Counted from the first letter of the stretch, positions 6,438 through 54,379 are shown. The stretch: 64,000 nt of DNA from an uncultured Gammaproteobacteria bacterium (GCA_964345045.1 CAYFPM010000003.1:6038-70037); one strand, 5' to 3'. Notes: a model not told the origin generated them from the letters alone. Numbers and translations are program-made.

Positions 6438-6579
6438 GCTTTGTTAGTTTCTGCTTTTTCTTAAGTAGAAAAACGATTTAAAAATATAATTTTTGTGTTT
6501 TTGGATCGTTCTTTCTATAGCCTACAACCTGGGGGTATCCCCCATTCAATCAACAGGGCTTTGCCCAAAGGAGCAAGAG

Positions 6580-7650
6580 ATGCGAAACTTCGCGCTCGTC
6601 ATCGCCATTCTGATCACGTGTGTCGCCACCATCAGTGGCTGCACCAAGAACAAGACCGAGGAGAAGCAGAAGTCGATCACCACTTCTGAGAGCTACTTCG
6701 GAGGTGACTGGCTTTCCGCAGTCCCCGACTGCGATCCCCTGAACGCAGCCATCAACCCCGATGCCATGGAGGTCGAGGACGGGATCGACAACAACTGCAA
6801 CGGCCTCATTGACACGGCCGAGTTGTCGGTCGACGTCCTCACCGACATCGAGAGACTCGGGGAGGTGCGCAAGCGCTTCTTCGACAGTGCCTTTGTCCGC
6901 AATGGCCCCCCGAAGGAGGAGGACGGCTGCTACAGCGGAAGAGCCTTCATTCGGGCCCTCTGGGCCATGGCCACCGACGAGAAGAGCGTCAAGAACGCCT
7001 CCGGCCTGGTCGGCGAGGCCTACAACGTCGAACTCAAGCTTGTGCAGAATGCCGATCTCTCTTCCAAGGACTGGGAGGAGATCTGGTACCAGACCGCGAA
7101 GCACATGCTCCCGGAACTGGTCGCCTATTGCGAGCCCACGCTCGACGTGGGCAACATGAGGTTCACGGCCACTTCGACGGGTAGCGGAGGCTTCCACGAA
7201 GTCTACTGGCAGATGAACGAGCTGGAGCTCGTTCACAAGCTCTACCCGGGCACGGAGAGCCCAGAGGACGCGGCCGAGACGATCGTACTCTTCGGGAACC
7301 TGCCGTACCCGATGAGCCCTGACAAATATCGCCACTACCACGAGCTTTCAAAGGTGGTCTTCCGCCACCTGGTCGAACTCAAGCAGAAAGGGAAGGACGA
7401 CTTGCCCTACCTCATGAAGTTCTTCCCGGTCGGAGATGGTTCGCCATCCGATTGGATCGGGCCGACACTCGAAGAGAAACTCTGCAAGGAAACGGACCGC
7501 ACCATCGAGGAGCGGGAAAAGTTCCTCGCCGTCGTGAGACGCCGTGTGAACAACAACGTCCTGTTTCAAAAGATCCGAGACAGGGACGACGGCAGTCCGA
7601 CATTCCCGCCGAACATGTCGGTAGAAGACTACTGCCGAGTGTGGAAGTAG
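6580..7650 (+). CDS. GC-rich predicted lipoprotein with a MopE-like Cys/Asp putative metal-binding motif
   Basis: RBS AAGGAG then ATG at 6580. Lipobox VATISGC. Motif DCDPLNAAINPDAMEVEDGIDNNCNGLID resembles the C-x-D-x-N-A-x-x-P-G-A-x-E-x-C-D-G-x-D-N-x-C-x-G repeat common in Myxococcota proteins. Strong GC and codon-usage contrast to flanks. Confidence 0.6.
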   Translation: MRNFALVIAILITCVATISGCTKNKTEEKQKSITTSESYFGGDWLSAVPDCDPLNAAINPDAMEVEDGIDNNCNGLIDTAELSVDVLTDIERLGEVRKRFFDSAFVRNGPPKEEDGCYSGRAFIRALWAMATDEKSVKNASGLVGEAYNVELKLVQNADLSSKDWEEIWYQTAKHMLPELVAYCEPTLDVGNMRFTATSTGSGGFHEVYWQMNELELVHKLYPGTESPEDAAETIVLFGNLPYPMSPDKYRHYHELSKVVFRHLVELKQKGKDDLPYLMKFFPVGDGSPSDWIGPTLEEKLCKETDRTIEEREKFLAVVRRRVNNNVLFQKIRDRDDGSPTFPPNMSVEDYCRVWK

Positions 7651-7798
7651 GTTCCCCACCATCTTTTCTGTGCCATAGGGTGCACAGATCGCAGAAGATG
7701 TAAAACATTCACAACCCAAACAAGGAGATCCCCATGTGCAACTGCGATGTGCCTGGGAACCAACTATTATTTTTACAAAGTTAAAAATAATTGAGGAC

Positions 7799-7829
7799 AA
7801 AAAAACTGAGTTAGTACTCAGTTTTTTTG
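7799..7829. terminator. A-tract/hairpin/T-tract terminator (AAAAAACTGAGTtagtACTCAGTTTTTTTG)
   Basis: Perfect 8-bp stem, 4-nt loop, T7 run; A-tract upstream makes it potentially bidirectional. Confidence 0.5.
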
Positions 7830-7841
7830 TTTAATTAATTC

Positions 7842-7958
7842 CTCCCCTATTAGGGGAGGCTAGCCCGCCTGCCTTGCTTCCCGATTTATCGGGATGCGGG
7901 CAGGGTGGGGTCAAATCGTCTACCAGCCCCCCTCTGTCTCCCCCTAATAGGGGGAGAA
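7842..7958. repeat. palindrome-bounded intergenic element (CTCCCCTATTAGGGGAG ... GC-rich hairpin ... TCTCCCCCTAATAGGGGGAGA)
   Basis: Two near-perfect palindromes in mutual inverted orientation enclose a structured GC-rich core (cccgat/atcggg and cctgcc/ggcagg pairings). The same boundary sequences recur at 41921 and 42342 around a DUF559 gene. Confidence 0.5.
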
Positions 7959-7979
7959 CTTTATTTCAATTTTTCGAAT

Positions 7980-8912
7980 CTACCCAATCCCCCACAATTC
8001 CTTCATCTGTTTTATCCCTTCTTCCAAATTAATCTTTGGCTCCCAGCCAAGCATTTCTTTGGCTCTGGTGTTGTCTGCTCTGGCATAGCGTGGATCTCCT
8101 GCTCTAGGATCTATGTTTGTAGTTGGTCCACCAATCAACTCAGCCAGTTGATTGACTGAGTATGGACTATTGTTTCCAATATTTATCATTTCCCCTTTGC
8201 CAACTTTGTCACTAGTCATAGCCAAGATATTGGCTTCTACAGCATCGTCTACATGAGTATAGTCACGGAAGTATTCTCCATCTCCACAAATAGTCATAGA
8301 TTCACCATTTTGCAATTGGCGCAAGAACTTGCCAATTACTAGGGCATAAGCTCCTTCCGGATCCATGTGCGGACCATAAATATTAAAATAACAAAGTGAA
8401 ACCGTTTCTAATCCATAAAGACTAGAAAAAAGTCGGCAGTATTCTTGACCAGCCAATTTTTGCAAAGCATAGGGGCTAAGCGGATTCTTCTTCATATTTT
8501 CTTTTAGAGCAATTGGTTCGTCTGATCCATAGACCGAAGAAGAAGTAGCAAATATAACTCTTTTTACTCCAGCATCTTTGGCAGAAAGAAGCACATTAAG
8601 AGTTCCATTCAAGTTGTGATCATTGGTAATATCCGGATGCTCAACAGAATAAGGTACCCGTGGCACAGCCGCTTCGTGAAAAACACCATCAACTCCTATT
8701 ACTGCTTTTTTGACATCTTCCAAATTTCTTATATCTCCTTCTATATATTCCACACCGTCAATTTTTCTTTCTGGAAATTTTTCAAAATCTCCAGCCGAAA
8801 AATTATCAAGCACGCGCACATCATGTCCGTCACGCTTTAATCTTTTTACAATGTTGGTACCGATAAACCCGGCACCGCCTGTTACTAAGTATTTCATATT
8901 TTTTTTAGTCAT
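7980..8912 (-). CDS. NAD-dependent sugar nucleotide epimerase (GalE/WbpP-like)
   Basis: MKYLVTGGAGFIGTNIV Rossmann motif, about 310 aa SDR-type epimerase. Confidence 0.8.
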   Translation of the reverse strand: MTKKNMKYLVTGGAGFIGTNIVKRLKRDGHDVRVLDNFSAGDFEKFPERKIDGVEYIEGDIRNLEDVKKAVIGVDGVFHEAAVPRVPYSVEHPDITNDHNLNGTLNVLLSAKDAGVKRVIFATSSSVYGSDEPIALKENMKKNPLSPYALQKLAGQEYCRLFSSLYGLETVSLCYFNIYGPHMDPEGAYALVIGKFLRQLQNGESMTICGDGEYFRDYTHVDDAVEANILAMTSDKVGKGEMINIGNNSPYSVNQLAELIGGPTTNIDPRAGDPRYARADNTRAKEMLGWEPKINLEEGIKQMKELWGIG

Positions 8913-8986
8913 ACTGAGCGGAGCGCAGCGGAGTCGAAGTATCCCGTTTATAACGAACGAGATCCTTCGCTAGCGCTCAGGATGAC
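8908..8986. repeat. MITE-like hairpin repeat with GTCAT(A/C)CTGAGCG terminal inverted repeats
   Basis: Left arm GTCATACTGAGCGGAGCGCAGCGGAGTCGAAG, right arm CCTTCGCTAGCGCTCAGGATGAC. Member of a family also present at 13035, 14023 and 46265. Confidence 0.5.
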
Positions 8987-9012
8987 TACACTTAAGACAA
9001 TTAATTTTCAAG

Positions 9013-10392
9013 TTATTTTATAAAAGGACTCCCCACCGCAATTATACCAAATCCGGCTTTTTGCAAATCATCGTACTTGTGTTGCAGCATTCTACGGCCA
9101 TCCATTAACAAAGTATTTGGTTTGGCGTGTTCTATAAGCAAATCTCCCAAACTACGAAATTGTGGCCAGTCGGTGGCTATTATTACTACATCGGCTTCGG
9201 CGATAGCTTCTTTTTCAGAGTTAGTATAAACCATTTTTTCTGACTCTGGAAAATTGTATTTGAAAAAATCCATAGCAGCCGGATCATAAGCTTGAATTTT
9301 TTTCACTCCCGAACCAAGCAAAATCTCGGCGATGTTTAAGCTTGGTGAGTTGCGAGTATCATTGGTATCTCGTTTGAAAGCTAGTCCAACCAAGGCTACG
9401 GTTTTGTCGCCCCACTCTATTCCGGCATCACGACCAGCTCTATCCAAAAAATTTTGCAATTGTCTTTTGTTGGCCCCATATGTTTCGTCTACAATCTCGG
9501 AATTTTTGCCAGCGTCACGCAATTGATGAGATAGGGATCTGGCATCTTTTATAAAACAGCTACCTCCGGCATAAAGACTATCATAAAATCCCCAATTACC
9601 AATTCTTTCATCACCAGTAATTATTTTACGAAGCTGTTCAAAATTTACATCGTCAAAAGCTTCGCTAGTGCGACCAATTACATCAAAACAAACGGCTAGT
9701 TTGTTGAAAAGATAAAAATTGGCCAACAGCTTACCGGCAGCAGATTCTTTTGGGTTTACTTCTAGATATTTTACAGTAGCCGAACTATAGAATCTGTCGT
9801 ATACGCCTCGCATTATGGCAAAATCTTTTTCACTCCAAGCTCCTACTACTACTCTGTCGGGACGAATGGAACCTTCTATAGCTTTGCCCTCTACCAAAAA
9901 TTCTGGGTTAGAAACTACACCATAATTTTTTACCCCCGCTTCGTCCATAATTTTGGCAGTTTGATCTACCATATCTATGGGCACGGTGCTTTTGTTTACT
10001 AGTACTACGTATTTTTCTTGGCTCCCATTATTTCTTTCTTTCAAAACTGTGGCCAATTGTTCGGCGGCTTTGTGATAGTATTCCAAATTGCTTTCGCCTG
10101 TCTCTCCAATTTCTGGAGTTGGCAAACACATAAAAATAGCATCAACATTGTCTAAAAAGGCTGTTACTTCCGAATAATCGGTAGTAAAACTAATGCGATC
10201 TTTGTGTCTTTGGAGTAGCTCTGCCAAACCTTCTTCGTAGATTACAGAATCTATTTGGTTTTTATCTCCCGAGCCTAATTTTTTTATTTTGTTTTCGTCT
10301 ATATCAAAAACCAAAGTAGTGTGTCCACTATCTGCAGACACAGCTGCCGAACAAGCGCCTACAAAACCAGATCCAATATATAAAATATTCAT
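9013..10392 (-). CDS. ugd: UDP-glucose 6-dehydrogenase
   Basis: MNILYIGSGFVGACSA N-terminal NAD fold and UDP-glucose/GDP-mannose dehydrogenase family length. The ORF in the track is extended upstream to 10566, but the ATG at 10392 matches the family N-terminus. Confidence 0.8.
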   Translation of the reverse strand: MNILYIGSGFVGACSAAVSADSGHTTLVFDIDENKIKKLGSGDKNQIDSVIYEEGLAELLQRHKDRISFTTDYSEVTAFLDNVDAIFMCLPTPEIGETGESNLEYYHKAAEQLATVLKERNNGSQEKYVVLVNKSTVPIDMVDQTAKIMDEAGVKNYGVVSNPEFLVEGKAIEGSIRPDRVVVGAWSEKDFAIMRGVYDRFYSSATVKYLEVNPKESAAGKLLANFYLFNKLAVCFDVIGRTSEAFDDVNFEQLRKIITGDERIGNWGFYDSLYAGGSCFIKDARSLSHQLRDAGKNSEIVDETYGANKRQLQNFLDRAGRDAGIEWGDKTVALVGLAFKRDTNDTRNSPSLNIAEILLGSGVKKIQAYDPAAMDFFKYNFPESEKMVYTNSEKEAIAEADVVIIATDWPQFRSLGDLLIEHAKPNTLLMDGRRMLQHKYDDLQKAGFGIIAVGSPFIK

Positions 10393-10750
10393 AATATAAA
10401 TGCTTGAAATGCCAAAAAAGCTAGAGAGGCTTTTAAGGCTTTTATGGGGGATACTATAGCAATTTGGATGTTTATTTTCAAGGGTTTTTGATAAATAGTT
10501 CTTGGTTCTTAGTTCAAAGTTATTAGTTAAGAGTACAGCTAAAATAATGCTAATTAGAAATTGCAACGGTCTCTGCCTTCGCTAGATTCACTATTACATA
10601 TTGCCAACTGCCTATACCCCAAAAAAACACGAAGGCCGGGCTGCTTTTTGCAACTCGGCCGGGCAGATACTGCCTTTCTCAGCATCTGCGCGTTTACCCA
10701 CTCACCTATGTCTACATCCGTTTTCACTATTTGCCCCTCCCAGAGCATGT

Positions 10751-11419
10751 TTACTCGTTGTCGTCTCCACCCAAAACCTCTACAAGTGGCACATCGCGAA
10801 CAGTGTCGGCCACTTGTACATCTAGTATCTCCGGGACTCCCGGGTCGGTCTGCACATCTGCCTCAAATGGCGGATGCAGCTCCTCGAGCCGACGACCTGG
10901 GACTGTATCCTTGTTCGCAGTCATTCTCCTCTGGGTTCTTCGGCTGGCACTGGCTAGCGGCCCTGGGTGCCGCTGGTCTGGCTCGGTGGTGCGCCTGGCT
11001 TGCCTAATTAGGAATTGAGCCAATTCTTCGTCTATGTCTGGGTCAAACCCTAGGCCCTCTCTATGGGGGGCTGGCGGGGCGACCAAACCAGGTGGTGCTT
11101 TGGCTTCTTCCATGTCACTTAGGATCTTGCCTAGCTCTGGAGCCGGGACAATATCTACAGGAGTGACCTCGCGCAAGTAGGGCGGCAAGCTGCTAGACTC
11201 TCTGGGCTGAGCCGGCATAGCCAAACCTTTGGCTAACTCTTGGGGCGAACTTGCATTCGCCCTGCCGACCATAGCCAGCGAGGTAAGCGCTGCCAAGAGA
11301 GCAACAACAGCTGTACCAATCAGGCTTTGTCGGCGAGATAGTACGCCGAGGAACCCTAGGGAAAGTATGGTGGCCAAAGCCACCAGTGTGGGTAACACTA
11401 GGAAACGCAATCTTTTCAA
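10751..11419 (-). CDS. GC-rich membrane-anchored proline-rich protein (unknown function)
   Basis: TTG start preceded by AAGGGAAG. Two N-terminal TM helices, then a Pro/acidic low-complexity tail. GC-rich codon usage unlike flanks. Confidence 0.45.
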   Translation of the reverse strand: MKRLRFLVLPTLVALATILSLGFLGVLSRRQSLIGTAVVALLAALTSLAMVGRANASSPQELAKGLAMPAQPRESSSLPPYLREVTPVDIVPAPELGKILSDMEEAKAPPGLVAPPAPHREGLGFDPDIDEELAQFLIRQARRTTEPDQRHPGPLASASRRTQRRMTANKDTVPGRRLEELHPPFEADVQTDPGVPEILDVQVADTVRDVPLVEVLGGDDNE

Positions 11420-11652
11420 AACGCTTCCCTTCCTTTCTCCACCATTTCGGTGGCCTAGGTATTCTTTGGCAAAAATAGCTAGGAGACAGAAATGGTGTGA
11501 ATTGTTACCTATTTTCAGTATGGCTTTATTTTTTCTTTTTTGTCAAGAGCTTTGGGCCAAAATATTGACTTTTGGCTAATTTTAGTGTAGGTTTCAAATA
11601 ATCTAGTTTGAGTAAAAAAGCTCAAACAGAAAGCTCTTTTGAGAGGTAAAAA

Positions 11653-12885
11653 GTGAAACTTACCATCACCAACCCCGACCACGCCTCCTACATCACCAGC
11701 CTCGACAACCAAAGATTCGCCGATGTACTCGTGGGAGAAGCCCCGAACATTCACTTCAACGATGGCAGGGCGGACAACCCGGTCATGCAGCTGTTGTGGA
11801 CAGATCCCCAGACTATCGTAGATATCTGCACCCTGGCCCTGCCCAAGGCAGAGCAAATGGAGACGTCCACCCACGTGAAACAAGAACGCCAGGCCGCCAT
11901 CTATGTATTGATGGTCGATGCATATCGGCGACTGTGGCAAGCAGAAACCTCTACTTCTAGGAAGATGTCTCTAGATGCGCAAGTCGCAGATATCTTCGAA
12001 AAAGCTCAGAGCCTGGTCGAGAAACTCGAGGAACACGATGTTGACAGAGCCAATAGGCTCACCGGATCTATGAATCACAACCGTATCCAGATGCTGGTTT
12101 CTACCGGCAAATACCTAGATGCTACCAAGCTCCACGACGAAAACGCTCGCCTCGCAAGAGAAGTGAATGATTTCCCCACCTTCGACCGAGAAGAACTTCG
12201 TGCCGCCGTACACGCCGCCAATCACCAACTGTGTTTTGGTGATCGCAGCGATATGGTCGGAGACCCAGACAGGTTGATAGATTGGGACTTGGCCGTACGC
12301 CAGGCTCAAGAGACAGCTCTGCATGTTGCAAGTCAATATGCAGACCAAGAAGAACACATCGCCATGGCCATCGAGGCACTTCTCTACGCTATTCGAATGG
12401 ACTGGTTGTCTAGGAGTGATCGCGACAACACGGCCTATATCCAACAAATCTCCGCCATGATGAGCGGGAACGAAGGCTTGCAAAAAGCCTTTGGCTGGAT
12501 GCACACGATCCTGGGGGCAGCCCAACTCATTCATTCCTTCAAGAATTGGGGGGAGGAGGTAATCGTTGAAGCCGAAAAAGCCATCGCCAGAATGAAGGAA
12601 ATCGGGGACAACGAAGATATCCCCATGCCCTACCGCACCGAAGCCATGCTCTGTATGGCGCAGCTGTCCAGCGCTCTAGGCCATTTCATCAGCCAAAACA
12701 GGTTCGGTTCCCATGGAGGCGCAACCATCCCCCAGTACCCGGACAGAATGCGGGCAGCCTACGAAGAAGCTGCCTCTATCCTACAGAAGCTCCAGAACCT
12801 GCAAGGTAGCCTGGCCTGGAAGGACGTAGCCACTATCATGGACAAGAGGCACCTCCCCAACGTACTCAAGTATTGCGCGGGATAA
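11653..12885 (+). CDS. GC-rich hypothetical alpha-helical protein (410 aa, no recognisable domain)
   Basis: GTG start preceded by GAGAGG. Long uninterrupted ORF in a GC-rich island, divergent from 10751..11419 across an AT-rich 230-bp spacer. Confidence 0.5.
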   Translation: MKLTITNPDHASYITSLDNQRFADVLVGEAPNIHFNDGRADNPVMQLLWTDPQTIVDICTLALPKAEQMETSTHVKQERQAAIYVLMVDAYRRLWQAETSTSRKMSLDAQVADIFEKAQSLVEKLEEHDVDRANRLTGSMNHNRIQMLVSTGKYLDATKLHDENARLAREVNDFPTFDREELRAAVHAANHQLCFGDRSDMVGDPDRLIDWDLAVRQAQETALHVASQYADQEEHIAMAIEALLYAIRMDWLSRSDRDNTAYIQQISAMMSGNEGLQKAFGWMHTILGAAQLIHSFKNWGEEVIVEAEKAIARMKEIGDNEDIPMPYRTEAMLCMAQLSSALGHFISQNRFGSHGGATIPQYPDRMRAAYEEAASILQKLQNLQGSLAWKDVATIMDKRHLPNVLKYCAG

Positions 12886-12993
12886 CATCAAAAAAGCAAC
12901 CTACCTCTCAACCGTTCTAAAGTTTAATTAGATTTAAATTTTTAGACCGGCCCCCTTCCCTTTGTTTATAAAAAATTTGTAACCAAAGGAAAA

Positions 12994-13026
12994 CAAAAAA
13001 CTACTGATATGTTCAGTAGTTTTTTG
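12994..13026. terminator. A-tract/hairpin/T-tract terminator (AAAAAACTACTGAtatgtTCAGTAGTTTTTTG)
   Basis: 8-bp stem, 5-nt loop, T6 run, about 110 nt after the stop of 11653..12885. Confidence 0.5.
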
Positions 13027-13034
13027 TTAGTAAA

Positions 13035-13207
13035 GTCATCCTGAGCGGAGTGAGTCTGAAAGACGAACACAGTCGATCCGATGCTTGCGATACGGATTCT
13101 CCGACGCAAGGTACGGAGTCCGTATTGAAACATCGGACCGTACTGTAAACGTCGGAAAGGATCCCGGTTGAAGTCCAAAGAGATTCTTCGCTAACGCTCA
13201 GAATGAC
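13035..13207. repeat. about 173-bp MITE-like element with GTCATCCTGAGCG / CGCTCAGAATGAC termini
   Basis: Terminal inverted repeats plus a highly self-complementary core (ccgatg...catcgg, atacgga...tccgtat). The core is the reverse complement of the core at 14023..14194. Confidence 0.55.
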
Positions 13208-13245
13208 TATAACTAATCAATCAGATTCTCACTACAACCTACCCC

Positions 13246-14016
13246 CTACTCACTAACAACATTCTTCGGATCTTCTCCCAAAGATTTGGTATAACCTTCG
13301 TTTCTGGTGTGGTGAGCATTGATCCCCTGCCATTCCGGATGAGCCAAACAAATACTAAGAACTTCGTTAAGTCCATAAAAACCACCTCGGGCTTCACAAC
13401 TTTCAATCAATAATCGCAAAAATTCAAAATCTTCCGGAGTATCCAAAGTCCAACGATGATTAGAAAAATCTTCTGTATTGGCTATATTAAAAAGTTTAAA
13501 CTTGTCCGGATGCTTCCAGATATAAGGCATTACGTGTTCACGCTCGGAATTAAGCTTGGCTTCTTTCCAAGCTTTTTCGAGGGCTGCAAAAGAAACCACC
13601 TCTGTATCAAGTCCATCTGGAAAAGTTGGTGGCTGAGTGTTTGATACATAATCATACTCCCCATCCAAAAAAGCTTGAATAACTCTATCTGTAACTTGCG
13701 GATCAAGCACCGGGCAATCTCCTGTAACACGCACAATTACATCGGCCTTGGACTGAATAGCAGCATGATAATATCTATCTAGCACATCTACCTCACTACC
13801 TCTATAATGTGGAATTCCTTTTTCTACTGCCCAATCGGCCAAAACATCGTCGGCATGGCTGGTAGTAGTAGCCAACCAAACATCATTTGCCAATCGAGAC
13901 ATTCTAGCTCTTTCTATCACGCGCTCTACTATGGGTTTGCCGGCTATGTCCATCATCATCTTACCTGGCAATCTGGTAGAGCCCATCCTGGCTTGAATTA
14001 TAATTACAACTTTCAT
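13246..14016 (-). CDS. CMP-nonulosonate cytidylyltransferase (NeuA/PseF/LegF, CTP_transf_3 family)
   Basis: MKVVIIIQARMGSTRLPGKMM N-terminal acylneuraminate cytidylyltransferase signature. Confidence 0.75.
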   Translation of the reverse strand: MKVVIIIQARMGSTRLPGKMMMDIAGKPIVERVIERARMSRLANDVWLATTTSHADDVLADWAVEKGIPHYRGSEVDVLDRYYHAAIQSKADVIVRVTGDCPVLDPQVTDRVIQAFLDGEYDYVSNTQPPTFPDGLDTEVVSFAALEKAWKEAKLNSEREHVMPYIWKHPDKFKLFNIANTEDFSNHRWTLDTPEDFEFLRLLIESCEARGGFYGLNEVLSICLAHPEWQGINAHHTRNEGYTKSLGEDPKNVVSE

Positions 14017-14022
14017 AAAAAA

Positions 14023-14194
14023 TTAATAAACAGTCATCCTGAGTCGCAGGTGAAGGATCCCAGTGGAAGTCCAAAGAGACCCTTTCCGACGTTTACAGTA
14101 CGGTCCGATGTTTCAATACGGACTCCGTACCTTGCGTCGGAGAATCCGTATTGCAAGCATCGGATCGACTTCGCTGTGCTTCGCTCAGGATGAC
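14023..14194. repeat. about 172-bp MITE-like element, inverted copy of 13035..13207
   Basis: GTCATCCTGAGTCGCAG ... CTTCGCTCAGGATGAC termini. The core ccgacgtttacagtacggtccgatgtttcaatacggactccgtaccttgcgtcggagaatccgtat matches the reverse complement of the 13035 copy almost exactly. Confidence 0.55.
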
Positions 14195-14195
14195 T

Positions 14196-15509
14196 CTAGG
14201 TTAGACGTTTAAACCCACTATGAGCCACAGGGCCTTCCAGCATTTCTTCTACTTTATTATTTTCAATCGCATCTTTCAAGAGGGCAAATACTTTGTCGAC
14301 TGTATCTAAAAATTTCTTTACGTGTTCTTCTTTGTGAGCATAACTAACATATACCGAGGCCGAAGCTAGTATGCCGCGTTTCAACATTTCTTGGGTATAA
14401 AGAGTTCTTATCTCTTGTCTGTTTTCATAATCAAAAAGAAACGTTACCAAAGCCGGTGGCCCCATAGTAGTAATTTTTAGACCATGTTTTTCGGCAAGTT
14501 TGTCCCAACCTTCCCAAATCATATTACCAATTTTTTCAATATGTTCTGGCACATTTTCTTTTTCTAATTTTTTTATAGTGGCAAGGGCCGCTACTGGGCC
14601 AATACGTTCGGTCCAATAAGTACTGCTAATAAAAGTATTTTGTGAAGCATCCATCACCTCGCTATTACCAATTACAGCCGACATAGGGAAACCATTGCTC
14701 ATACCTTTGGCAAAAACAGCTATGTCTGGTTCGACTCCATAAACTATATGCATTCCTCCTACATTTTTGCGCCAAGCAGAAGTTACTTCGTCAAAAATCA
14801 AAACAGCTCCAATTTTGTCTGCAATCTGTCGCACCTTTTGTAAGAAATCATTTTCTGGTTCATTGTGACGCACTGGCTCCATTACAATCACCCCAATATC
14901 ATTATTTTCTTTTACAATTTCTTCTAATTGTTCGATCTTATTATATTCAAAAGGTACTGCCGAACCATGTAATCCACGTACCACGCCTTTTGGTTCGAGC
15001 CCCGGGATAAGATGTCCGTCCAGGTTACTGTCGGAGGCTAGATTACTAGCCAAGTACCAATCATGCCAACCATGATAACCACAAAAAGCCACAGTACCTT
15101 TGCCACTTTTGGCTCGACCAATACGCACGGCAATAGACAAAGCTTCACCACCAGTTCTGGCATAGCGCACCATACTAGCCCAGGGGTGCAGTTCAATTAG
15201 CTTTTCGGCTAGGTCTACTTCTTCCGGGCAGTTAAGAGTTGTCATACTTCCCCGCTCTATCGCATCTACCACAGCCGCATTTACATCTGGATCGGCATAG
15301 CCCAGCACACAAGACCCAATCCCCATGTAAGACATGTCCATATAAGTATTACCATCCATATCTGTTACTTCACAACCTTTGGCATCGGTGTAGTAAGCTG
15401 GCCACTGGTCTGGCAAAAACATTTCTGCTCGTTTGGACAAAAGTTGTGATCCTCCCGGCAAAATCTTTTTGGCTTCTTGCCAACGTTTTAGGGTTTTTTC
15501 TCTACTCAT
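14196..15509 (-). CDS. class III PLP aminotransferase (glutamate-1-semialdehyde aminomutase-like)
   Basis: GSA-AT-like length and motifs (YTDAKGCEVTDMDGNTYMD; FDEVTSAWR). Confidence 0.8.
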   Translation of the reverse strand: MSREKTLKRWQEAKKILPGGSQLLSKRAEMFLPDQWPAYYTDAKGCEVTDMDGNTYMDMSYMGIGSCVLGYADPDVNAAVVDAIERGSMTTLNCPEEVDLAEKLIELHPWASMVRYARTGGEALSIAVRIGRAKSGKGTVAFCGYHGWHDWYLASNLASDSNLDGHLIPGLEPKGVVRGLHGSAVPFEYNKIEQLEEIVKENNDIGVIVMEPVRHNEPENDFLQKVRQIADKIGAVLIFDEVTSAWRKNVGGMHIVYGVEPDIAVFAKGMSNGFPMSAVIGNSEVMDASQNTFISSTYWTERIGPVAALATIKKLEKENVPEHIEKIGNMIWEGWDKLAEKHGLKITTMGPPALVTFLFDYENRQEIRTLYTQEMLKRGILASASVYVSYAHKEEHVKKFLDTVDKVFALLKDAIENNKVEEMLEGPVAHSGFKRLT

Positions 15510-20521: not shown

Positions 20522-20818
20522 CTAACTTTTTGTACTCAAATAAGTTTTTAAAGCTTTCTTAATATATTGTCTACCCCAACCAATTTTAAAAAATTTTTCT
20601 CGTGCTTTTGCGTCCTCTTTATGAGAATAGGCTTCATAGTAAACTAACTTAAATGGTCTTCTTGGTGCAGTAAAAAAACTCTTTCCTTCATTGTGCTCAA
20701 CAGATCTTCTTTGTAGATCATTAGTATAACCTGTATAAAAATTACTATCTTTCATACTCTCTAAAATATAAACATAATACATACAAATGTACAAAACGTT
20801 AGACGGGATAATCAACAA
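20522..20818 (-). CDS. GIY-YIG nuclease-domain small protein
   Basis: YVYILESMKDSNFYTGYTNDLQRRSVEHNEGKS matches the GIY...YIG...R...E...N core. It is wedged between, and overlaps, the hisF-like and hisH-like genes. Confidence 0.6.
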   Translation of the reverse strand: MLIIPSNVLYICMYYVYILESMKDSNFYTGYTNDLQRRSVEHNEGKSFFTAPRRPFKLVYYEAYSHKEDAKAREKFFKIGWGRQYIKKALKTYLSTKS

Positions 20819-27762: not shown

Positions 27763-27791
27763 TTGACAATAAAGTTTTTTTATGATATTTT
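27763..27791 (+). promoter_or_regulatory. candidate sigma70-like promoter (TTGACA, 17 nt spacer, TATTTT)
   Basis: Consensus -35 but weak -10, about 100 nt upstream of the GC-rich micro-gene. Confidence 0.3.
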
Positions 27792-27892
27792 TTGCAGTCG
27801 TATAGTCTCTTGCTTGGGTGTGTCATAAGAGAACGGGGAAAGCAGATCGATAACCCCAACCAACTCCCCCCAAGGGAGAAAGGAACTCCTCT

Positions 27893-28111
27893 ATGGCACG
27901 TCCCCTGCACTACGACAAACACGGCAATCCCGACTTCGACTGGGACGATTGGGATCCCATTGCGGAAAGAAAACCGCAACCTCCAATCGTAATGTCGCCA
28001 GAAGAGGCTGCAAGGTATGGAGAACTCCAACTGCGCGCCTGGGAAAGTGACGGTGAAGTCCAAATGTCGGCTCTCGCCGACGAAGAGGGCGAGGAACCCG
28101 AGTCCGAGTAG
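27893..28111 (+). CDS. GC-rich small acidic protein (72 aa, unknown)
   Basis: RBS GGGAGAAAGG then ATG. Strongly acidic DFDWDDWD ... EEGEEPESE composition. GC-rich island only about 300 bp wide. Confidence 0.4.
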   Translation: MARPLHYDKHGNPDFDWDDWDPIAERKPQPPIVMSPEEAARYGELQLRAWESDGEVQMSALADEEGEEPESE

Positions 28112-28170
28112 TAGTCTGGGAGGCCTGGCTTTGTGCATTGCACAGAGCCAGGCCACCACTTACATCAATC

Positions 28171-28199
28171 AAAAAACTGAGTAGACCTCAGTTTTTTTA
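28171..28199. terminator. A-tract/hairpin/T-tract terminator (AAAAAACTGAGtagacCTCAGTTTTTTTAT)
   Basis: Same design as the terminators at 6294, 7799 and 12994. Confidence 0.5.
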
Positions 28200-41907: not shown

Positions 41908-41920
41908 AAGCAAGTTGTTC

Positions 41921-41937
41921 CTCCCCTATTAGGGGAG
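41921..41937. repeat. CTCCCCTATTAGGGGAG palindrome (left boundary of DUF559 cassette)
   Basis: Identical to the palindrome at 7842..7859. Confidence 0.5.
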
Positions 41938-41951
41938 GTTAGGAGGGGTCC

Positions 41952-42338
41952 TTATATAGATAAATTTTTTATATAAAAGATTATATCATTAATAACATTA
42001 TCAAGCTCGTATTTAATTTGTTCATTCCTGTATCTCAAAACAAAATATCCGTTTTGTTGTAAATATTTTTGTCTAATTATATCTTTCTTTTTATTTTCTT
42101 TTTCTGCATGTATGTACCCATCTATTTCTATTATCAATTTCAACTCATGAGAATAAAAATCTACAATATAATAATCAATGTTAAACTGTCTTCTAAATTT
42201 AACCCCCAGTTGTTTTGCTTTTAATTTATACCACAATATTTTTTCCGCTTCAGTTTGACAAGTTCTTAGACACCTTCTTCTTTTTTTAAAAGATGCTTTA
42301 TTCTGGTAACGACCGATTGATTTCATATTGACCCCCAC
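41952..42338 (-). CDS. DUF559 (Vsr/Mrr-like restriction-endonuclease-fold) protein
   Basis: TEAEKILWYKLK ... FRRQFNIDYYIVDFY ... LIIEIDG ... RQKYLQQNGYFVLRY matches the DUF559 layout. Confidence 0.6.
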   Translation of the reverse strand: MGVNMKSIGRYQNKASFKKRRRCLRTCQTEAEKILWYKLKAKQLGVKFRRQFNIDYYIVDFYSHELKLIIEIDGYIHAEKENKKKDIIRQKYLQQNGYFVLRYRNEQIKYELDNVINDIIFYIKNLSI

Positions 42339-42341
42339 TTA

Positions 42342-42360
42342 CTCCCCCTGATAGGGGGAG
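42342..42360. repeat. CTCCCCCTGATAGGGGGAG palindrome (right boundary of DUF559 cassette)
   Basis: Near-identical to TCTCCCCCTAATAGGGGGAGA at 7938..7958, including the preceding CCCCCxCTxxxCT context. Confidence 0.5.
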
Positions 42361-42362
42361 AA

Positions 42363-43523
42363 TTAACTTTTACTCTTATAATTCTCTATAATCTGTTTAA
42401 TTGTTACATCCCAACTAAACGTAGACATAACTTTGTTGTAACTAGCTTCACCAAATTCTTTTCTTTTTTCTTCATTTGAGAGCAACTCATTAACTTTGTC
42501 AGCCAAATTTTGTTTCCTTTCTTCACTTGTATCCATTGGGGCATCATAATCAGAATTTTCCCAATCAACTAGTTTCACCAGATAGCCCGTTTTGTTATCT
42601 TCTACCATTTCCAAATAACCACCAACTCTACTGGCAACAAGTGCTTTTTTCATAGCCATAGCCTCTAGACAAGCCAAACTGGTTGATTCGGCAGTAGAAG
42701 GAAAAACCACAACTTTGGCCAAAGATAAATAACCTGGAACCAGTTTGTTTTCTACTTTTCCAACAAAATCAAAATGTTTTCTTACTCCCAATTCTTCTGC
42801 TCTTTGTTTGAGATATTCTTCTAATTGACCATAACCAACCAAGACAAATTTTACATCTTTGTTTTTTTCTACAATTTTTGGGCTAGACTCTACCAAAAAT
42901 TGTATTCCATTTTTAGGAACCAATCTTCTTACAGTCAAAACAACTTTGTTGTCTTTGTATTTTTCTTCCAAATCAGTTGGTATTTCGGTCTTTTGAAAAG
43001 TTTCTAGATCAACGGCATTTGGAATATACTTAATCTTTTTTTCACTAGTATATTTTTTGGCAATGTCTACAAAATCTTGGCAAGAAGCAATTATATAATC
43101 GGAAACTTTTAGCGAAAACCATCTGTAAAAACTATGTACCAATCCATAAACAAAATTATTTCCAGGTAGATCAAGAATACCTCTTCCCTGCAAAGTTATG
43201 GCAAATGGTTTTTTCTTGAAAATATTATAAATCCCGGCGTAAGCAGCAAACTTGTGCGAATATACTGCATGGATTATATCGACTTCGTCCAAAAACTTTT
43301 TAAGTTCTTTATAAAATTTAATCTTGCCTTTTAGCCCTTTGCCAAAATCTACTCTGGTGGTATTGAAATCATCCTGGTAATCTTTGGTGTTTTTTTCGTC
43401 TAGTGTAAACACACTTACTTCATAACCACTTTTTTGTAGATACTTGGCCAAATTGTAGGCATAAACTTCTGCTCCCCCAATTCTTGGCAAATACCAATCA
43501 ATTACAATTCCTATTTTTTTCAT
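42363..43523 (-). CDS. family-4 (GT-B fold) glycosyltransferase
   Basis: Glycos_transf_1 layout; a C-terminal domain with an EAMAMKKALVAS-type motif. Confidence 0.8.
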   Translation of the reverse strand: MKKIGIVIDWYLPRIGGAEVYAYNLAKYLQKSGYEVSVFTLDEKNTKDYQDDFNTTRVDFGKGLKGKIKFYKELKKFLDEVDIIHAVYSHKFAAYAGIYNIFKKKPFAITLQGRGILDLPGNNFVYGLVHSFYRWFSLKVSDYIIASCQDFVDIAKKYTSEKKIKYIPNAVDLETFQKTEIPTDLEEKYKDNKVVLTVRRLVPKNGIQFLVESSPKIVEKNKDVKFVLVGYGQLEEYLKQRAEELGVRKHFDFVGKVENKLVPGYLSLAKVVVFPSTAESTSLACLEAMAMKKALVASRVGGYLEMVEDNKTGYLVKLVDWENSDYDAPMDTSEERKQNLADKVNELLSNEEKRKEFGEASYNKVMSTFSWDVTIKQIIENYKSKS

Positions 43524-46252: not shown

Positions 46253-46264
46253 AGTTTAATAGTA

Positions 46265-46320
46265 TTCATCCTGAGCGTCAGCGAAGGATCTCTTCGGACT
46301 AAGGCTAGGATATTTCTTCC
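46265..46320. repeat. partial copy of the GTCATCCTGAGCG repeat family
   Basis: TCATCCTGAGCGTCAGCGAAGGATCTCTTCGGAC shares the left terminus and GAAGGATC core; no matching right arm. Confidence 0.35.
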
Positions 46321-49235: not shown

Positions 49236-49240
49236 AAAAA

Positions 49241-50041: not shown

Positions 50042-50101
50042 AATTATTCTTTAAGCCCTAGTATTCTACTTAGCCAGGCCAAGGCTGTCAAGAAATTTTT
50101 A

Positions 50102-50270: not shown

Positions 50271-53200
50271 TTATGGCACAGCTTGCGGAGTTTCTCCCGG
50301 GCAGCAGAGAGCGCCATTGTCGGTAATATAGGTGCCCTGGGCGCAGCCATAGACCAGTGGCGCGCTTGGCGTACCTAGGTAGCGCAGTTCATTGCCCGAC
50401 CAGATTTCTACTCCGGTCACCGAGTTGGCATCCGGGGCATTGTACGAGCCACCAGTCCCCGGCCATTGATCGTAGACATGGGGAGGATTGGAGACGTAGG
50501 AGCACGTACTACAAATCTGATCGCTAGGGATACCCGAGACGTCGTTGCCATCGACCACACACGAAGCCAACCAGTATCTCCCAGTTGTTGGAATAGGCGT
50601 CGGTCCTCGGTAATGCAAGAACTCGGTCCAAGTGCACATATGCGAACCATTTCCGCAAGAGACATGGGCACTGCACTGGTCGAAGTTGGTACTCCAGCTA
50701 GATGTAGCACAGCCAACCATCATGCTGTCTGGGTAGACATCTTCGGTGTTGTAACCCGAGGCGCAAGTGGCCGGAGCGAGTGGAGCTGCTGCTCCAGAAT
50801 CTGGTTCGACTCCGGTGTCCGGAGTGCCGGTGTCAGGGGCTTCTCCAGAGTCTACGCTTCCACTATCTACTGTTGCTATTCCAGAATCTAGACTCCCGCT
50901 GTCGGTGATTCCCCCATCGCTGCTTGTGAAGATTTGAGGAGTGGCTCCGTAGCAACACAGGGCTCCGTTGTAGTCAACGTAGGTGCCTTGGGCACTGCCG
51001 TAGACAGCCGAAGTAGTTAGTGTTCCCAGGTGACGCGGGTCTCCATTGGGTCCCCAGATTTCTACGCCAGTGTAAGAGTTGGTGTTGGGGGCATTGAAGG
51101 CCACCCCACCTTCTTGCCACTGATCGTGGACATGAGGGGGATTGGAAACTTGGGCGCAAGAACTACAGATTTGGTCAGTCGGAGTGCCGGGGTTGTCGTC
51201 CCCATCAGTGACGCACGAGGCTAGCCAAAAGCGTTCTTGGGTGTAGACTTGGCTGCCGCCGCTGTAGTGATTGAACTCGCTCCAAGTGCACATATGGGAA
51301 TTGTCTCCACAAGAGACAGGGGCGTCGCACTGGTTGTAACCATTGCTCCAATTCAAGGTAGAGCAACCGATCATCATGCTTGTTCCAGGAATTGCTTCCG
51401 TGGGATGACCGGGAGCGCAAGTGGCTACTGCGGGGATACCGCTATCTGCTACTCCGGCGTCTACTTGAACGTTGGCTTGGCTGGCAGCTGGGAGAGGCGT
51501 AGTGCCTGGGCAACACATGGCGCCGTTTTCTGCAAGCGATGTGGGTTGAACCGAAGCATAGGCCAAAGGACCGCTCGACGAACCCAAACGACGACGTCCT
51601 GAACCTGGCCAGAGTTCTACACCGGCTACGGCATGAGGATCTGCATGCCCAAAGCTGGTACCGTCTTCGTGCCATTGATACTCAAAGTACATGGTCGAAG
51701 CGATGTTTTGGCAGTTGTAGCTACAAATCTCGTTGGTGGGCAAAGTCACCAGGGCTTCGGGGCTGTCGTGTACACAAGAGGCTAGCCAATACCGACCAAT
51801 GGCCGGAATGGGAGTGTTTCCACGGTAGTAGACATACTCGTCCCCAGTGCACATATGTGAGTTGCCTCCGCAAAAGCCGTTGGCTCGGCACTGGTTGCGT
51901 CCTTCTGTCTTTCCACCACAACCGACCATACCGGGAATAGCGTAGTCCGGGTTAGTGGTTTTCTCGTACCCTGCAGCACAACTGGCGTAGGTGATGCTGG
52001 GGTCGAGTGTGGGCGCGGTGCAGGTGCTGGTTTCTGTTGGCGAGACGCGTGGATCTTGGGTGCAGGTCTCGGTATTGACCAGTTCGCAAACGCGGTTGTG
52101 GGTATTGTCTACTCCACACTCTAGTGGGTAGGCAGAACAAACCCAGTCGTTGTCTGCTACGGTACACGACCGCATCGGGGTACAAGTGCTGGTCTCGGTA
52201 GGAGCCAGTCCCATGGTGTCGACACAAAGAACGTCGAGCTTTTGGCAGTCTCGACTTTGGGTGCCCAGGTAGTTGCAGCGGTCGTACTCGCCACAGCTCC
52301 AGTCATCTGCCGTACAGGGATCTGTGCTTTCTATGGCCGTAAGGCTTACGGCTCCGAGTTCCCTGACTTGGTTGGTGGCGGTATGGAGGCTTCGAGCCAG
52401 GATAGTGTAGTTTCCGGGGAGTGGATGCTCTAGGCTGACTCGGTGGTGGAGTTGTCCTTGGCCACCTCCGGTGGTGGGCACGGTGTAGGGGCCGGTGAGG
52501 AACGACAGGTCGTGTCGTTTGGCTCCGTTGTAGTAGACTTCGTAGTAGGTGTAGATGTCTCCGGGGGAGACGTTATGAATTTGAAAGTACAGGTAGTATT
52601 CCGGCCAGCCGGCGTAGATGGTGGTTGGCGGGATACATTCGTACTGGTTATTTATTTGGTTGTAGGTGGCATTTCCTTCGCAGAGGATGGCGGTGCCAGC
52701 CTGGCCAAAGCCAGTGCTCGAGGGATTGAGGTTGGCATCTGATCCGCTGGTTTGCAGGTGAAACAGGCTGGTGGAATCTAGCCCGTAGATGCCGGGTAGT
52801 GTAGACGTGGCTCCGAGGTAGGAACTAGTACACAGATTAGTTCCGGTGGAACTATTCTCTAGACAGTTCGTACCAGAGGGTGGATTGTTAGAACCGCTGG
52901 TAGCCACTTCGCAAACTCCCACTCCGCTGGGGAGGCCGTATCTTCCGCCTTGGGCAGGATTGCAGACTAGGCCGCTGGCACACTCCGTATCGCTCTCGCA
53001 GTGGCCCTCGCCAGCCTGGCACTGGCAGCCGCTGGAGCAATAGTAGTAATCTCCGTTTAGGTAGCCAGTGAGGCAGCGGGTGCCATCCGTGGCTCCGGGA
53101 ACGGATGCTAGTCTAAGTGCTCCTCCCTGGGGGTTGTATGCGAGATTGGACAAACCCGTATCTACCGTATAGGAAGGAATACCTCCAAGGGGGATTCTTT

Positions 53201-54284
53201 TTATTCGGTAATCGAACTCGAAACTGGGTTGGCTGGGCCAAGAAATTCCGCCTGTTTGGACGAACACTTCGAATCTCCATTTGGTCCAAACTTGTCCGGG
53301 TTGGCTATTGGCCAAAGCGTTATGGATTGTGATATTGGGCATCACATGTTTATAGATCACCAGAGTTCCATTGGAAACGCTGCTCCAGGCTGGATCCCAG
53401 TTAACGTTGATCCAGTTGGTCTCCTCGACCCATTCTCCTCGGCTTTCTTCTCCCCCGTTATCTGTTTCTCTATGTCCTACAACTCTAATACGTACCAGCT
53501 GGTCTCTCACACGCAGTTGGATTGCGGTGTAAGGGCTTTCGGTTTCGTAGAAGTCATAAAACGGAACCAGGGGATCGGAATCGTTCCCATCGTTTGACAA
53601 ACCTGCTCCAAATCTATTTGACAAGGGCAGGCAGCTTACGGGATTCCCAGAACTGTCTTGAGTGTAATGAACGCACGTCGTCGGGTTCGGGAGGATTGTG
53701 TAAGAAGCCGTTGGATTATACAAAGTATTGTTTGAAAGATATTGATTACCAGCAACCAAGTTGGCATATCCAGATATAGGCTCAGGTTTTACGCCTACAC
53801 CATTACAATACAATGCAAAATGCAAATGCATACCAGGACTCAGCGAACATGCAGATCCAGACACATTTCCAGTATTCCCAACAACTCCAATTTGCTGTCC
53901 CTGAAAAACATACTGACCATCTTGCACAAGCACACTATCAAGATGAGCATATCGAGTTTTGCACTCACCATGATTAATCAGAACAGCATTACCATAACCA
54001 CCGCTGTTTGGGGTGGGAACAGCGACAACTCCCTCTGCTGCAGCAAGAATGGGTTTCCCAATCGAATTGCAACCCGACTCAATAAAATCTACAGCATAAC
54101 GATCGTCAGAGGTGTCCCCACCATAATCGATATGAGAAGCAATATTATATCCTCTAGTAAGAATCCAACTCTCACCACTCGGGAACGGCAATCTCATATC
54201 CGGTACAGAGGCAGAGGCTTTCACAACAAAAAGCATCTGAATCTGAATAGCCAAGAGGATGGTTGAGATAACAAACCTATACAA
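50271..54284 (-). CDS. GC-rich giant secreted protein: N-terminal M23 (LytM-type) metallopeptidase + Cys-rich central region + three tandem about 170-aa Cys-rich repeats
   Basis: TTG start with AGGTAG upstream. Signal peptide ending VKASA. M23 motifs HIDYGGD (HxxxD) and GMHLHFALY (HxH). Three repeats each contain C..SHMCT..E(F/Y)..Y ... RYWLASCV ... GALCC. Strong GC and codon-usage contrast to flanks. Confidence 0.6.
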   Translation of the reverse strand: MYRFVISTILLAIQIQMLFVVKASASVPDMRLPFPSGESWILTRGYNIASHIDYGGDTSDDRYAVDFIESGCNSIGKPILAAAEGVVAVPTPNSGGYGNAVLINHGECKTRYAHLDSVLVQDGQYVFQGQQIGVVGNTGNVSGSACSLSPGMHLHFALYCNGVGVKPEPISGYANLVAGNQYLSNNTLYNPTASYTILPNPTTCVHYTQDSSGNPVSCLPLSNRFGAGLSNDGNDSDPLVPFYDFYETESPYTAIQLRVRDQLVRIRVVGHRETDNGGEESRGEWVEETNWINVNWDPAWSSVSNGTLVIYKHVMPNITIHNALANSQPGQVWTKWRFEVFVQTGGISWPSQPSFEFDYRIKRIPLGGIPSYTVDTGLSNLAYNPQGGALRLASVPGATDGTRCLTGYLNGDYYYCSSGCQCQAGEGHCESDTECASGLVCNPAQGGRYGLPSGVGVCEVATSGSNNPPSGTNCLENSSTGTNLCTSSYLGATSTLPGIYGLDSTSLFHLQTSGSDANLNPSSTGFGQAGTAILCEGNATYNQINNQYECIPPTTIYAGWPEYYLYFQIHNVSPGDIYTYYEVYYNGAKRHDLSFLTGPYTVPTTGGGQGQLHHRVSLEHPLPGNYTILARSLHTATNQVRELGAVSLTAIESTDPCTADDWSCGEYDRCNYLGTQSRDCQKLDVLCVDTMGLAPTETSTCTPMRSCTVADNDWVCSAYPLECGVDNTHNRVCELVNTETCTQDPRVSPTETSTCTAPTLDPSITYASCAAGYEKTTNPDYAIPGMVGCGGKTEGRNQCRANGFCGGNSHMCTGDEYVYYRGNTPIPAIGRYWLASCVHDSPEALVTLPTNEICSYNCQNIASTMYFEYQWHEDGTSFGHADPHAVAGVELWPGSGRRRLGSSSGPLAYASVQPTSLAENGAMCCPGTTPLPAASQANVQVDAGVADSGIPAVATCAPGHPTEAIPGTSMMIGCSTLNWSNGYNQCDAPVSCGDNSHMCTWSEFNHYSGGSQVYTQERFWLASCVTDGDDNPGTPTDQICSSCAQVSNPPHVHDQWQEGGVAFNAPNTNSYTGVEIWGPNGDPRHLGTLTTSAVYGSAQGTYVDYNGALCCYGATPQIFTSSDGGITDSGSLDSGIATVDSGSVDSGEAPDTGTPDTGVEPDSGAAAPLAPATCASGYNTEDVYPDSMMVGCATSSWSTNFDQCSAHVSCGNGSHMCTWTEFLHYRGPTPIPTTGRYWLASCVVDGNDVSGIPSDQICSTCSYVSNPPHVYDQWPGTGGSYNAPDANSVTGVEIWSGNELRYLGTPSAPLVYGCAQGTYITDNGALCCPGETPQAVP

Positions 54285-54379
54285 AACATCTACCTGCGCG
54301 GAATAGAAAACAAATGTCTTCTAACTACACACAGCGCTTGTGTGTAGTACAAAAAACATTTGAATTCCAAATAATTTAA

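Follow-up and report, generated by a model that had tools for sequence, protein, structure and literature searches.

Clusters of surface-polysaccharide genes are classic mosaic regions, and acquired DNA is more often AT-richer than its host. Exchange in small units is familiar from the minimal mobile elements of Neisseria and from integron cassettes, which are single-gene units between conserved genes with palindromic terminator-like repeats at their ends; bacteriolysins, for their part, have immunity factors of the FemABX type. Patescibacteria are an abundant, largely uncultured group, and little is understood of their recognition and exploitation of hosts. Gene transfer and genomic islands have been documented in Patescibacteria, and in one survey most transfers into them came from other Patescibacteria (PMC12455944). 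Chimeric archaeal zoocin-like M23 hydrolases combine domains obtained from different donors by independent transfers (PMC12356512). Here we describe a stretch of 64,000 nt (CAYFPM010000003.1:6038-70037 of GCA_964345045.1, labelled an uncultured Gammaproteobacteria bacterium; "the window" below), a long run of glycan-synthesis genes forming a large surface-glycan cluster, in which five GC-rich segments (islands A, B1, B2, C and D) are embedded. Island D is the greater part of a gene with an M23 peptidase domain.

The foreign origin of these islands is well supported by the G+C content at third codon positions (GC3), codon choice, amino-acid make-up and dinucleotide signature. We consider it probable that they record piecemeal horizontal acquisition from GC-richer organisms, combined with a recombining modular M23 lysin locus. 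A preliminary description of this DNA had offered three explanations: acquisition from one high-GC donor, a cargo system exploiting a common insertion context, and an artificial or chimeric construct. Horizontal acquisition is the best of these, though not in its single-donor form.

Composition and authenticity of the GC-rich segments

Against a window mean of 37.6% G+C, the islands (Table 1) were delimited by the agreement of a 400-nt profile, a finer profile and a two-state hidden Markov model (HMM). The GC3 of the five island open reading frames (ORFs) lies 7-15 standard deviations above that of the other ORFs (0.28 ± 0.035, range 0.19-0.37, n = 51). CTG and CTC together account for 0.83 of the Leu codons in A, 0.65 in B2, 0.57 in the GC-rich tail of D and 0.23 in B1, compared with 0.08 in the host and 0.19 in the head of D. 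The encoded proteins are shifted as well: Gly, Ala, Arg and Pro make up 0.23-0.37 of residues (host 0.195 ± 0.03), Phe, Tyr, Met, Ile, Asn and Lys 0.12-0.26 (host 0.34 ± 0.04), and the Lys/Arg ratio is below 1.3 (host 2.4). Because amino-acid make-up is displaced beyond silent sites, the island proteins evolved in GC-richer genomes and were long resident there. Dinucleotide distances to the host reach 229 for A, 174 for B2 and 163 for D, against 71 ± 23 and 45 ± 13 in host-segment nulls. B1 and C are too short to be judged by this signature, and the segments are too short for island-to-island distances to decide whether a single donor supplied them.

The composition jumps first noticed by eye are therefore real, with GC3, codon choice, amino-acid make-up and HMM segments in agreement. 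They had been placed at coding-sequence boundaries, which holds for A, B1, B2, C and the 3' end of D, where the GC edges fall 0-125 nt from the coding-sequence ends (for B2, no more than 10 nt from the start and stop codons); the 5' edge of D lies inside a gene. What had been taken for one island B at 10560-12890 is GC-rich, but consists of two coding sequences parted by a spacer of 31% G+C. Unusual start codons had also been pointed out: B1 does begin with TTG and B2 with GTG, but A most likely begins with ATG, and non-ATG starts are not distinctive because they are also listed for many host ORFs. Two segments outside the islands were also marked by the HMM, namely 116 nt of non-coding DNA with clustered hairpins (7841-7956) and part of a native aminotransferase gene in which G+C is mildly raised (14953-15324).

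Table 1. Coordinates of the islands, the M23 locus and associated signals. Positions count from the first letter of the window; island limits are those of the two-state HMM.
Feature	Position	Strand	Description
Promoter of A	6409-6437	+	sigma-70-type: TTGACA, 17-nt spacer, TATACT, extended -10 TG; 11/12
Promoter of C	27763-27791	+	sigma-70-type: TTGACA, 17-nt spacer, TATTTT; 10/12
Terminator	6294-6321		palindromic intrinsic, AAACTACTGAG-loop-CTCAGTTTTTT; ends native plus-strand unit 4365-6259; first family member
Terminator	7800-7827		bidirectional; between island A (+) and native epimerase-UDP-glucose dehydrogenase unit (-) ending at 7980
Terminator	12998-13025		bidirectional; variant stem ACTACTGA/TCAGTAGT; between B2 (+) and native minus-strand unit ending at 13246
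Terminator	28171-28198		bidirectional; directly after stop of native gene 28208-29515 (-); also ends C (+)
Hairpin cluster	7841-7956		three GC-rich non-coding hairpins, CTCCCCTATTAGGGGAG type; not part of island A
Island A	6520-7761	+	58% G+C; coding sequence 6580-7650, 356 aa, GC3 0.83
Island B1	10628-11459	-	coding sequence 10751-11419, 222 aa, TTG start, GC3 0.55
B1-B2 divergent spacer	11460-11662		31% G+C; promoter-like site for B1 at 11546-11517
Island B2	11663-12881	+	coding sequence 11653-12885, 410 aa, GTG start, GC3 0.64
Island C	27812-28159	+	72-codon ORF 27893-28111, acidic protein, GC3 0.59
M23 gene (D)	50271-54284	-	1337 codons, GC3 0.53
D tail (island D proper)	50275-53694	-	codons ~195-1337, GC3 0.58
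D head	53695-54284	-	signal peptide and M23 peptidase domain, GC3 0.31, host-like
Partner gene, upstream of D	54380-55033	-	217 aa, N-terminal membrane anchor, GC3 0.22, host-like

An artificial or chimeric construct is excluded, since three or four assemblies of two runs agree exactly on the junctions and the reading frame runs through the junction of D. The ENA/MGnify assemblies of ERR2281802 and ERR2281803, their Logan counterparts and an NCBI contig of 229,673 bp all carry this sequence with 100% identity. Identity between independent assemblies (two runs, different assemblers) covers the junctions of A and C, the left junction of B1, the right junction of B2 and the head side of D. Although contigs of both ENA assemblies break at island B, on either side of the B1-B2 spacer (11420, 11834), and within the D tail (~52,420, ~52,850), it is extremely improbable that assembly or binning stitched GC-rich reads of other organisms into a low-GC contig: different assemblers reproduced these junctions identically from two runs, the D junction does not interrupt an ORF of 1337 codons, and each island combines a ribosome-binding site with an intact ORF, lined up with host promoters and terminators. 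The breaks themselves appear as contig ends or starts in two independent megahit assemblies (11420/11834 and ~52420/52850), and could reflect strain-level variation at island B and in the D tail.

Mosaic structure of the M23 peptidase locus

Island D had been described as an inserted gene spanning 50271-54300. The segment 53,695-54,284 is host-like, and D proved to be a mosaic within a conserved native two-gene locus. GC3 changes at codon 194 (0.31 before, 0.58 after), just past the conserved end of the M23 domain, KPEPISGY...LYNP. The M23 domain and Cys-rich repeats that had been reported are both present. PF01551 matches residues 74-167 at 75.1 bits (cut-off 28.7), and the head matches the solved structures of ShyA, TagE, DipM and zoocin A (5kvp). 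It keeps HLH (in MHLHF) and YAHL; the position of HxxxD, outside the profile and PDB alignments, reads by eye RYAVD in D (window 54095-54115, residues ~57-63) and RYALD in the homologue P0008. A conserved His 12 residues upstream of RYAVD (SHIDYGG) could substitute as zinc ligand in this subfamily. D is probably a secreted peptidoglycan hydrolase.

The tail carries three Cys-rich repeats of ~165 residues, mutually 45-59% identical and with no relatives found, and a Cys-rich module of ~55 residues (residues ~400-465) with many relatives in multi-domain secreted proteins. The two carriers of this module that we fetched belong to organisms with 42-51% G+C, one on a 6.5-Mb contig. When the tail was run through full HMMER against 1.84 billion representatives, almost the only relatives were those of the 55-residue module, and a word-indexed search of D against 5.8 billion protein clusters matched in the M23 domain only. 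Tail and repeats had no Pfam match even at E = 5, no PDB sequence match and no recognised wall-binding domain, and a structure model of the repeat was unusable (predicted local distance difference test score, pLDDT, 32). The long Cys-rich tail presumably targets the hydrolase to a particular envelope. Searches of Pfam, PHROGs and PADLOC assigned the partner protein to no family. The gap that separates its gene from the M23 gene holds a perfect 9-bp hairpin (54322-54349, CTACACACA-AGCGC-TGTGTGTAG), a candidate attenuator or processing site of the operon.

To place D among its relatives, metagenomes of the Joint Genome Institute were scanned with an alignment of the D head, which gave 80 loci. 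The order partner-then-M23 recurs in related low-GC contigs (L003, L044, L057, L066, L080 and others). Homologues in low-GC relatives, which the preliminary description had named as evidence against a foreign origin, do exist for part of D, namely for its head-partner pair. Tails reach 100 aa or more at 52 loci; in 18 of these, tail GC3 exceeded head GC3 by at least 0.15, and the reverse was seen in one. Several of the 18 are near-duplicates, so that roughly 13 are distinct. For at least 13 of the tested loci, the maximum-likelihood change-point fell no more than ~45 codons from the KPEP motif. Tails no less AT-rich than the flanking DNA are about equally common (L037, L038, L039, L046, L048, L051, L067, L085, L086, L097), and high GC is therefore no property of the M23 family. 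At L080 (7114-8470), partner (GC3 0.32) and head (0.31) form a low-GC patch in a genome of GC3 ~0.57, which the tail matches; relative to the genome, its polarity is opposite to that of D in the window.

The loci L037 and L067 have tails that are 100% identical over 2,615 nt and left flanks that are 89% identical. Between these parts (L037 4392-5222, L067 606-1474), ~125 codons at the C-terminal end of the partner and ~150 at the start of the M23 head are unalignable as DNA; the two heads are 59% identical as proteins, and the swapped block brings no GC shift. The pair shows a recent exchange of a partner-plus-head cassette, one edge of which lies at the M23 domain end. D would accordingly count as one allele of a modular, recombining lysin-type locus, with the conserved 3' part of the M23 region as its crossover point. 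That the partner ectodomain was transferred along with the head suggests that partner and M23 head interact, the partner acting, for example, as an inhibitor, immunity factor or activator.

A locus that demonstrably recombines, with a step at the M23 domain end that runs in the same direction across many loci, is also what endogenous maintenance of GC in an AT-rich genome might produce, through GC-biased gene conversion at recombination hot spots or through selection on coding sequence. The close tracking of coding-sequence ends by the GC edges, with promoter and spacer DNA staying AT-rich, fits such a process. We regard it as very unlikely indeed, because not just silent sites but also amino-acid make-up is shifted, and because a GC3 of 0.83 beside 0.28 is far above the effects of GC-biased conversion reported in bacteria. 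Moreover, about as many family members have AT-rich tails, and the L037/L067 block was swapped without a GC shift.

The islands and the D tail could instead have been captured from a GC-richer bacterium on which an episymbiont lives, its envelope proteins and wall-binding modules being re-used for attachment or lysis. Consistent with this, three of the five products look exported or membrane-bound, the D head is an M23 domain with zoocin A and ShyA among its relatives, 18 loci against 1 have the tail GC-richer than the head, secreted proteins of large-genome organisms with 42-51% G+C contain the Cys-rich tail module, and the tail of P0008 has Pro/Thr-rich linkers and a faint CBM_4_9 match (in a precomputed Pfam list only). 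Capture from one such partner is nevertheless unlikely: database searches found a homologue of A, B1, B2, C or the three large repeats in no organism, the island compositions are several and different, and the polarity of L080 is opposite. Stated more broadly, ultra-small episymbionts would systematically re-tool a conserved M23 head-plus-partner cassette with tails and envelope genes from the GC-richer organisms they inhabit, a proposal to which we give only a small chance. If it were true, the GC3 step at the M23 end in about one-third of the family would be a record of host capture and host switching, and attachment or interference factors of host origin would also be found in the orphan islets A, B and C.

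Single-gene islets, their signals and their host

The coding sequence of A most likely starts at ATG 6580, where a ribosome-binding site is followed by a lipoprotein signal peptide ending in ISGC; TTG 6493 is probably not the start. The product is predicted to be a membrane-anchored lipoprotein with one MopE-type metal-binding motif, whose score above the Pfam threshold confirms the earlier report of this motif. Its description as Myxococcota-like found no support: in the word-indexed search of 5.8 billion protein clusters, matches were limited to the 30 residues of the motif, and the remainder is an orphan. B1 has hydrophobic N-terminal helices followed by a Pro-rich acidic region, suggesting a membrane protein with a disordered Pro-rich, acidic part, and had no family match in Pfam, NCBIfam, PHROGs or PADLOC. 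B2 matched only itself in the same cluster search; its structure model, poor (pLDDT 60) and all-helical, is consistent with a cytoplasmic helical protein.

A ribosome-binding site precedes the ORF of C, which gene calling recovered in four assemblies. In its predicted 5' untranslated region (UTR; 27795-27925), GUGUCAUAAGAG pairs with CUCUAUGGCAC and covers the ribosome-binding site and AUG, and a GC-rich hairpin follows at 28122-28154. With the 3' hairpins removed, the plus strand folds better than shuffles (z = -2.9; minus strand z = -0.8). C may be either a 72-residue acidic protein or a structured RNA. An Rfam search of the whole window returned nothing at the gathering threshold, and only sub-threshold chance matches in the regions around A and C. 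Overall, a theme of envelope or host-interaction accessories of an episymbiont is plausible for the island proteins.

The islets had been described as sitting in promoter/terminator frames; such a "frame" is made up of general host signals. Both promoters, at 6409 and 27763, are present, the former followed by a 5' UTR of ~140 nt; native promoters are equal or better (12/12 at 55258, 11/12 at 50091 and 4361), and promoter-like sites between 4 and 15 kb are not enriched (26 versus 20 ± 4.8 in shuffles). The terminator family is likewise real, with five occurrences of CTCAGTTTTT where 0.45 are expected, a number reached in 0 of 100 shuffles. Strict palindromes of A-run, stem and T-run occur only at 7796, 12991 and 28167, plus one spurious intragenic match. 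Each of the three lies directly downstream of the end of a native minus-strand unit (7980, 13246 and 28208, respectively), and the transcription of A, B2 and C is directed towards these bidirectional terminators. Since the palindromes sit at the ends of native units, the host needs them with or without the islands.

This bears on the possibility of a dedicated cassette system, in which promoter-gene-terminator units would be inserted at a common site in an integron-like or minimal-mobile-element-like manner, with the palindromic terminators as recombination or uptake sites. The units are single genes, the promoters of A and C are alike in TCTTGACAA...TTTTTTATG.TAT, and all four terminator-family members in ~73 kb adjoin islands, A being bracketed by two. 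However, the terminators stand exactly where native minus-strand units end and are needed regardless of islands, their motif is absent from all related loci fetched, and D does not fit the scheme at all. Scans of 15 proteins, those of the five islands and ten encoded nearby, gave no match to an integrase, transposase, relaxase, phage or defence family, and the window has no tRNA genes. Target duplications or flanking repeats of the islands did not exceed chance, and no repeat family, inverted repeats included, is common to the GC-rich edges. Lacking target duplications, edge repeats, tRNA genes and, among the proteins scanned, anything integrase-like, a dedicated cassette system is very unlikely, and the suggested cargo system at a common insertion context is unsupported on the same grounds, having neither flanking duplications nor shared edge repeats nor mobility domains in those proteins.

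The idea of one high-GC donor fared no better. A, B2 and the D tail are essentially orphans, leaving no donor lineage in which to cluster. By composition, three or more classes can be told apart among the islands, A forming one, B2, C and the D tail another, and B1 a third, a pattern that suggests several events and not one. Searches of viral contigs, PHROGs, PADLOC and PDB sequences found no island relatives, only a weak lipoprotein-signal match for A, and plasmid searches gave nothing useful.

The window contains a broad set of glycan-synthesis genes, including sugar transferases, epimerases, a UDP-glucose dehydrogenase (UGDH), NeuB/NeuA-like proteins, aminotransferases, a flippase and PMT_2-type transferases. 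The UGDH is 64% identical to that of a Candidatus Magasanikiibacteriota metagenome-assembled genome (MAG) and 58% identical to that of another Patescibacteria MAG; a 72% match on a 2-kb contig binned as Gammaproteobacteria carries little weight. According to contig names, relatives of the M23 head come largely from groundwater metagenomes, small-filter fractions included. On these comparisons, the host is quite likely an AT-rich patescibacterium, that is, a member of the candidate phyla radiation (CPR), and it is probably ultra-small. None of ten host proteins looked up is 90% or more identical in any other organism. The two nearest genomes, L004 and L005 (those with 64% and 58% UGDH identity), have no A- or B-like genes and no GC-rich segments near UGDH, and gene order is barely conserved. 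Exact-protein look-ups for alternative contexts or empty sites returned the same genome only.

Several further features of this genome and its relatives were observed. Related low-GC contigs (L059, L063, L087, L091) show strong gene-to-gene swings in GC3 (0.58, 0.32, 0.41, 0.57 and 0.33 in L059), and patchy composition may be common in the lineage of the window. GC-rich palindromic hairpins (CTCCCCTATTAGGGGAG, CTCCCCCTAATAGGGGGAG) recur in intergenic DNA at 7841-7956, 41918-41942 and 42332-42377; they are a host repeat family resembling repetitive extragenic palindromes, with no matching Rfam family, and those at 41918 and 42344 bracket a very AT-rich small gene (41952-42338). An element of ~170 nt resembling a miniature inverted-repeat transposable element, with terminal inverted repeats GTCATCCTGAGCG...CGCTCAGGATGAC, is present at 13040-13215 and inverted at 14030-14200, with partial copies at 8959-8995 and 46256-46292. 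The two oppositely oriented copies, with 119-nt arms that are 90% complementary, flank a NeuA-like cytidylyltransferase gene (13246-14016), a layout that could let this gene invert or be lost. An ORF with a GIY-YIG nuclease domain (86-98 aa, 20522-20818) lies between glycan-synthesis genes within a long minus-strand operon.

Proposed origin and comparison with known systems

Together, these results lead us to favour piecemeal acquisition. The surface-glycan cluster of an AT-rich host would have taken up several short pieces of GC-richer DNA, probably on separate occasions and perhaps from the environment, with integration by illegitimate or homology-anchored recombination. A, B1, B2 and C would be single-gene islets, each lodged in a gap just beyond a pre-existing bidirectional host terminator and transcribed from ordinary AT-rich sigma-70-type promoters that either pre-existed or readily evolved in the AT-rich spacer. 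Survivorship may explain this arrangement, if only insertions that were insulated from host operons and expressed persisted. Island D would be the variable targeting tail of a secreted M23 hydrolase of the lysostaphin/zoocin type, whose head and partner are native and lineage-conserved, head and tail having been joined by recombination at the conserved M23 domain end, the recurrent crossover point of the family. The island proteins may serve as cell-envelope or host-interaction factors.

A number of observations sit uneasily with this proposal. The searches gave no donor for any of the islands, since neither A nor B2 nor the greater part of the D tail has relatives among 5.8 billion clusters and 1.84 billion representatives, and transfer is thus inferred from composition only; such orphan status would be expected if the donors are poorly sampled and fast-evolving, possibly GC-richer Patescibacteria. 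No empty site was seen, L004 and L005, as the nearest genomes, being too distant and sharing little gene order. The single-gene precision is tighter than random insertion predicts (B2 edges within 10 nt, the spacer of 31% G+C). A near-consensus promoter between two terminators, as at A, is unlikely by chance, given a rough estimate of ~5 such sites per 128 kb on both strands, and four of four terminator-family members in ~73 kb of genome adjoin islands, which leaves some chance that terminators and islands are linked. Finally, the 18:1 asymmetry between low heads and high tails may reflect a systematic process and not independent imports.

As plain horizontal transfer, the window is a clean example that requires no new principle. 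Its composition contrast is extreme and its genes are orphans, and a useful by-product is the crossover that recurs at the M23 domain end across an uncultured lineage. If piecemeal acquisition is correct, surface-glycan clusters of Patescibacteria accept single foreign genes at transcriptionally insulated spots, and a lineage-wide secreted M23 hydrolase locus evolves by head/tail exchange at one crossover point. Tail composition could then point to interacting organisms and give a handle on host range from sequence. The M23 loci also supply candidate lysins and partner proteins for experiment.

Compared with horizontally acquired islets, including those of Patescibacteria (PMC12455944), the window is alike in its sharp breaks in GC, GC3, codons, amino acids and dinucleotides, in its accessory and mostly functionally uncharacterised cargo, and in the location in a surface-polysaccharide cluster. 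Classical genomic islands are multi-gene and come with a tRNA target, an integrase and direct repeats; the islets of the window are single genes or part of one gene, and none of these hallmarks was detected for them. They also differ in being GC-richer than the host and in having no donor homologues in very large databases. With minimal mobile elements and integron cassettes they share single-gene units and palindromic terminator-like repeats at the unit ends, but these repeats are explained as native terminators. Integron cassettes differ further, as the islets have no attC-like sites, no integron integrase among the 15 proteins scanned and no alternative cassettes at the same site.

D itself is closest in plan to modular M23 bacteriolysins such as lysostaphin (M23 and SH3b) and zoocin A (M23 and a target-recognition domain). 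It likewise appears to combine an N-terminal secreted M23 domain with a separate C-terminal region, its head and tail differing in evolutionary origin, and it has a small linked gene. It departs from them in its tail of ~1,140 residues, built of uncharacterised Cys-rich repeats with no SH3b, LysM or PG_binding domain, in its RYAVD in place of HxxxD, and in its partner, which is encoded upstream, is membrane-anchored and has no detected likeness to the FemABX type. Polymorphic toxin loci (CdiA-CT, Rhs-CT, S-type pyocins) offer a second parallel. The motifs VENN and PxxxxDPxGL of such toxins are absent from D, and its enzymatic domain and partner belong to the N-terminal head; the variable part is presumably a binding tail and not a toxin. 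As in those loci, conserved and variable parts are joined at a conserved motif, with a compositional break there, and a neighbouring partner gene is swapped along with one module, as L037 and L067 exemplify.

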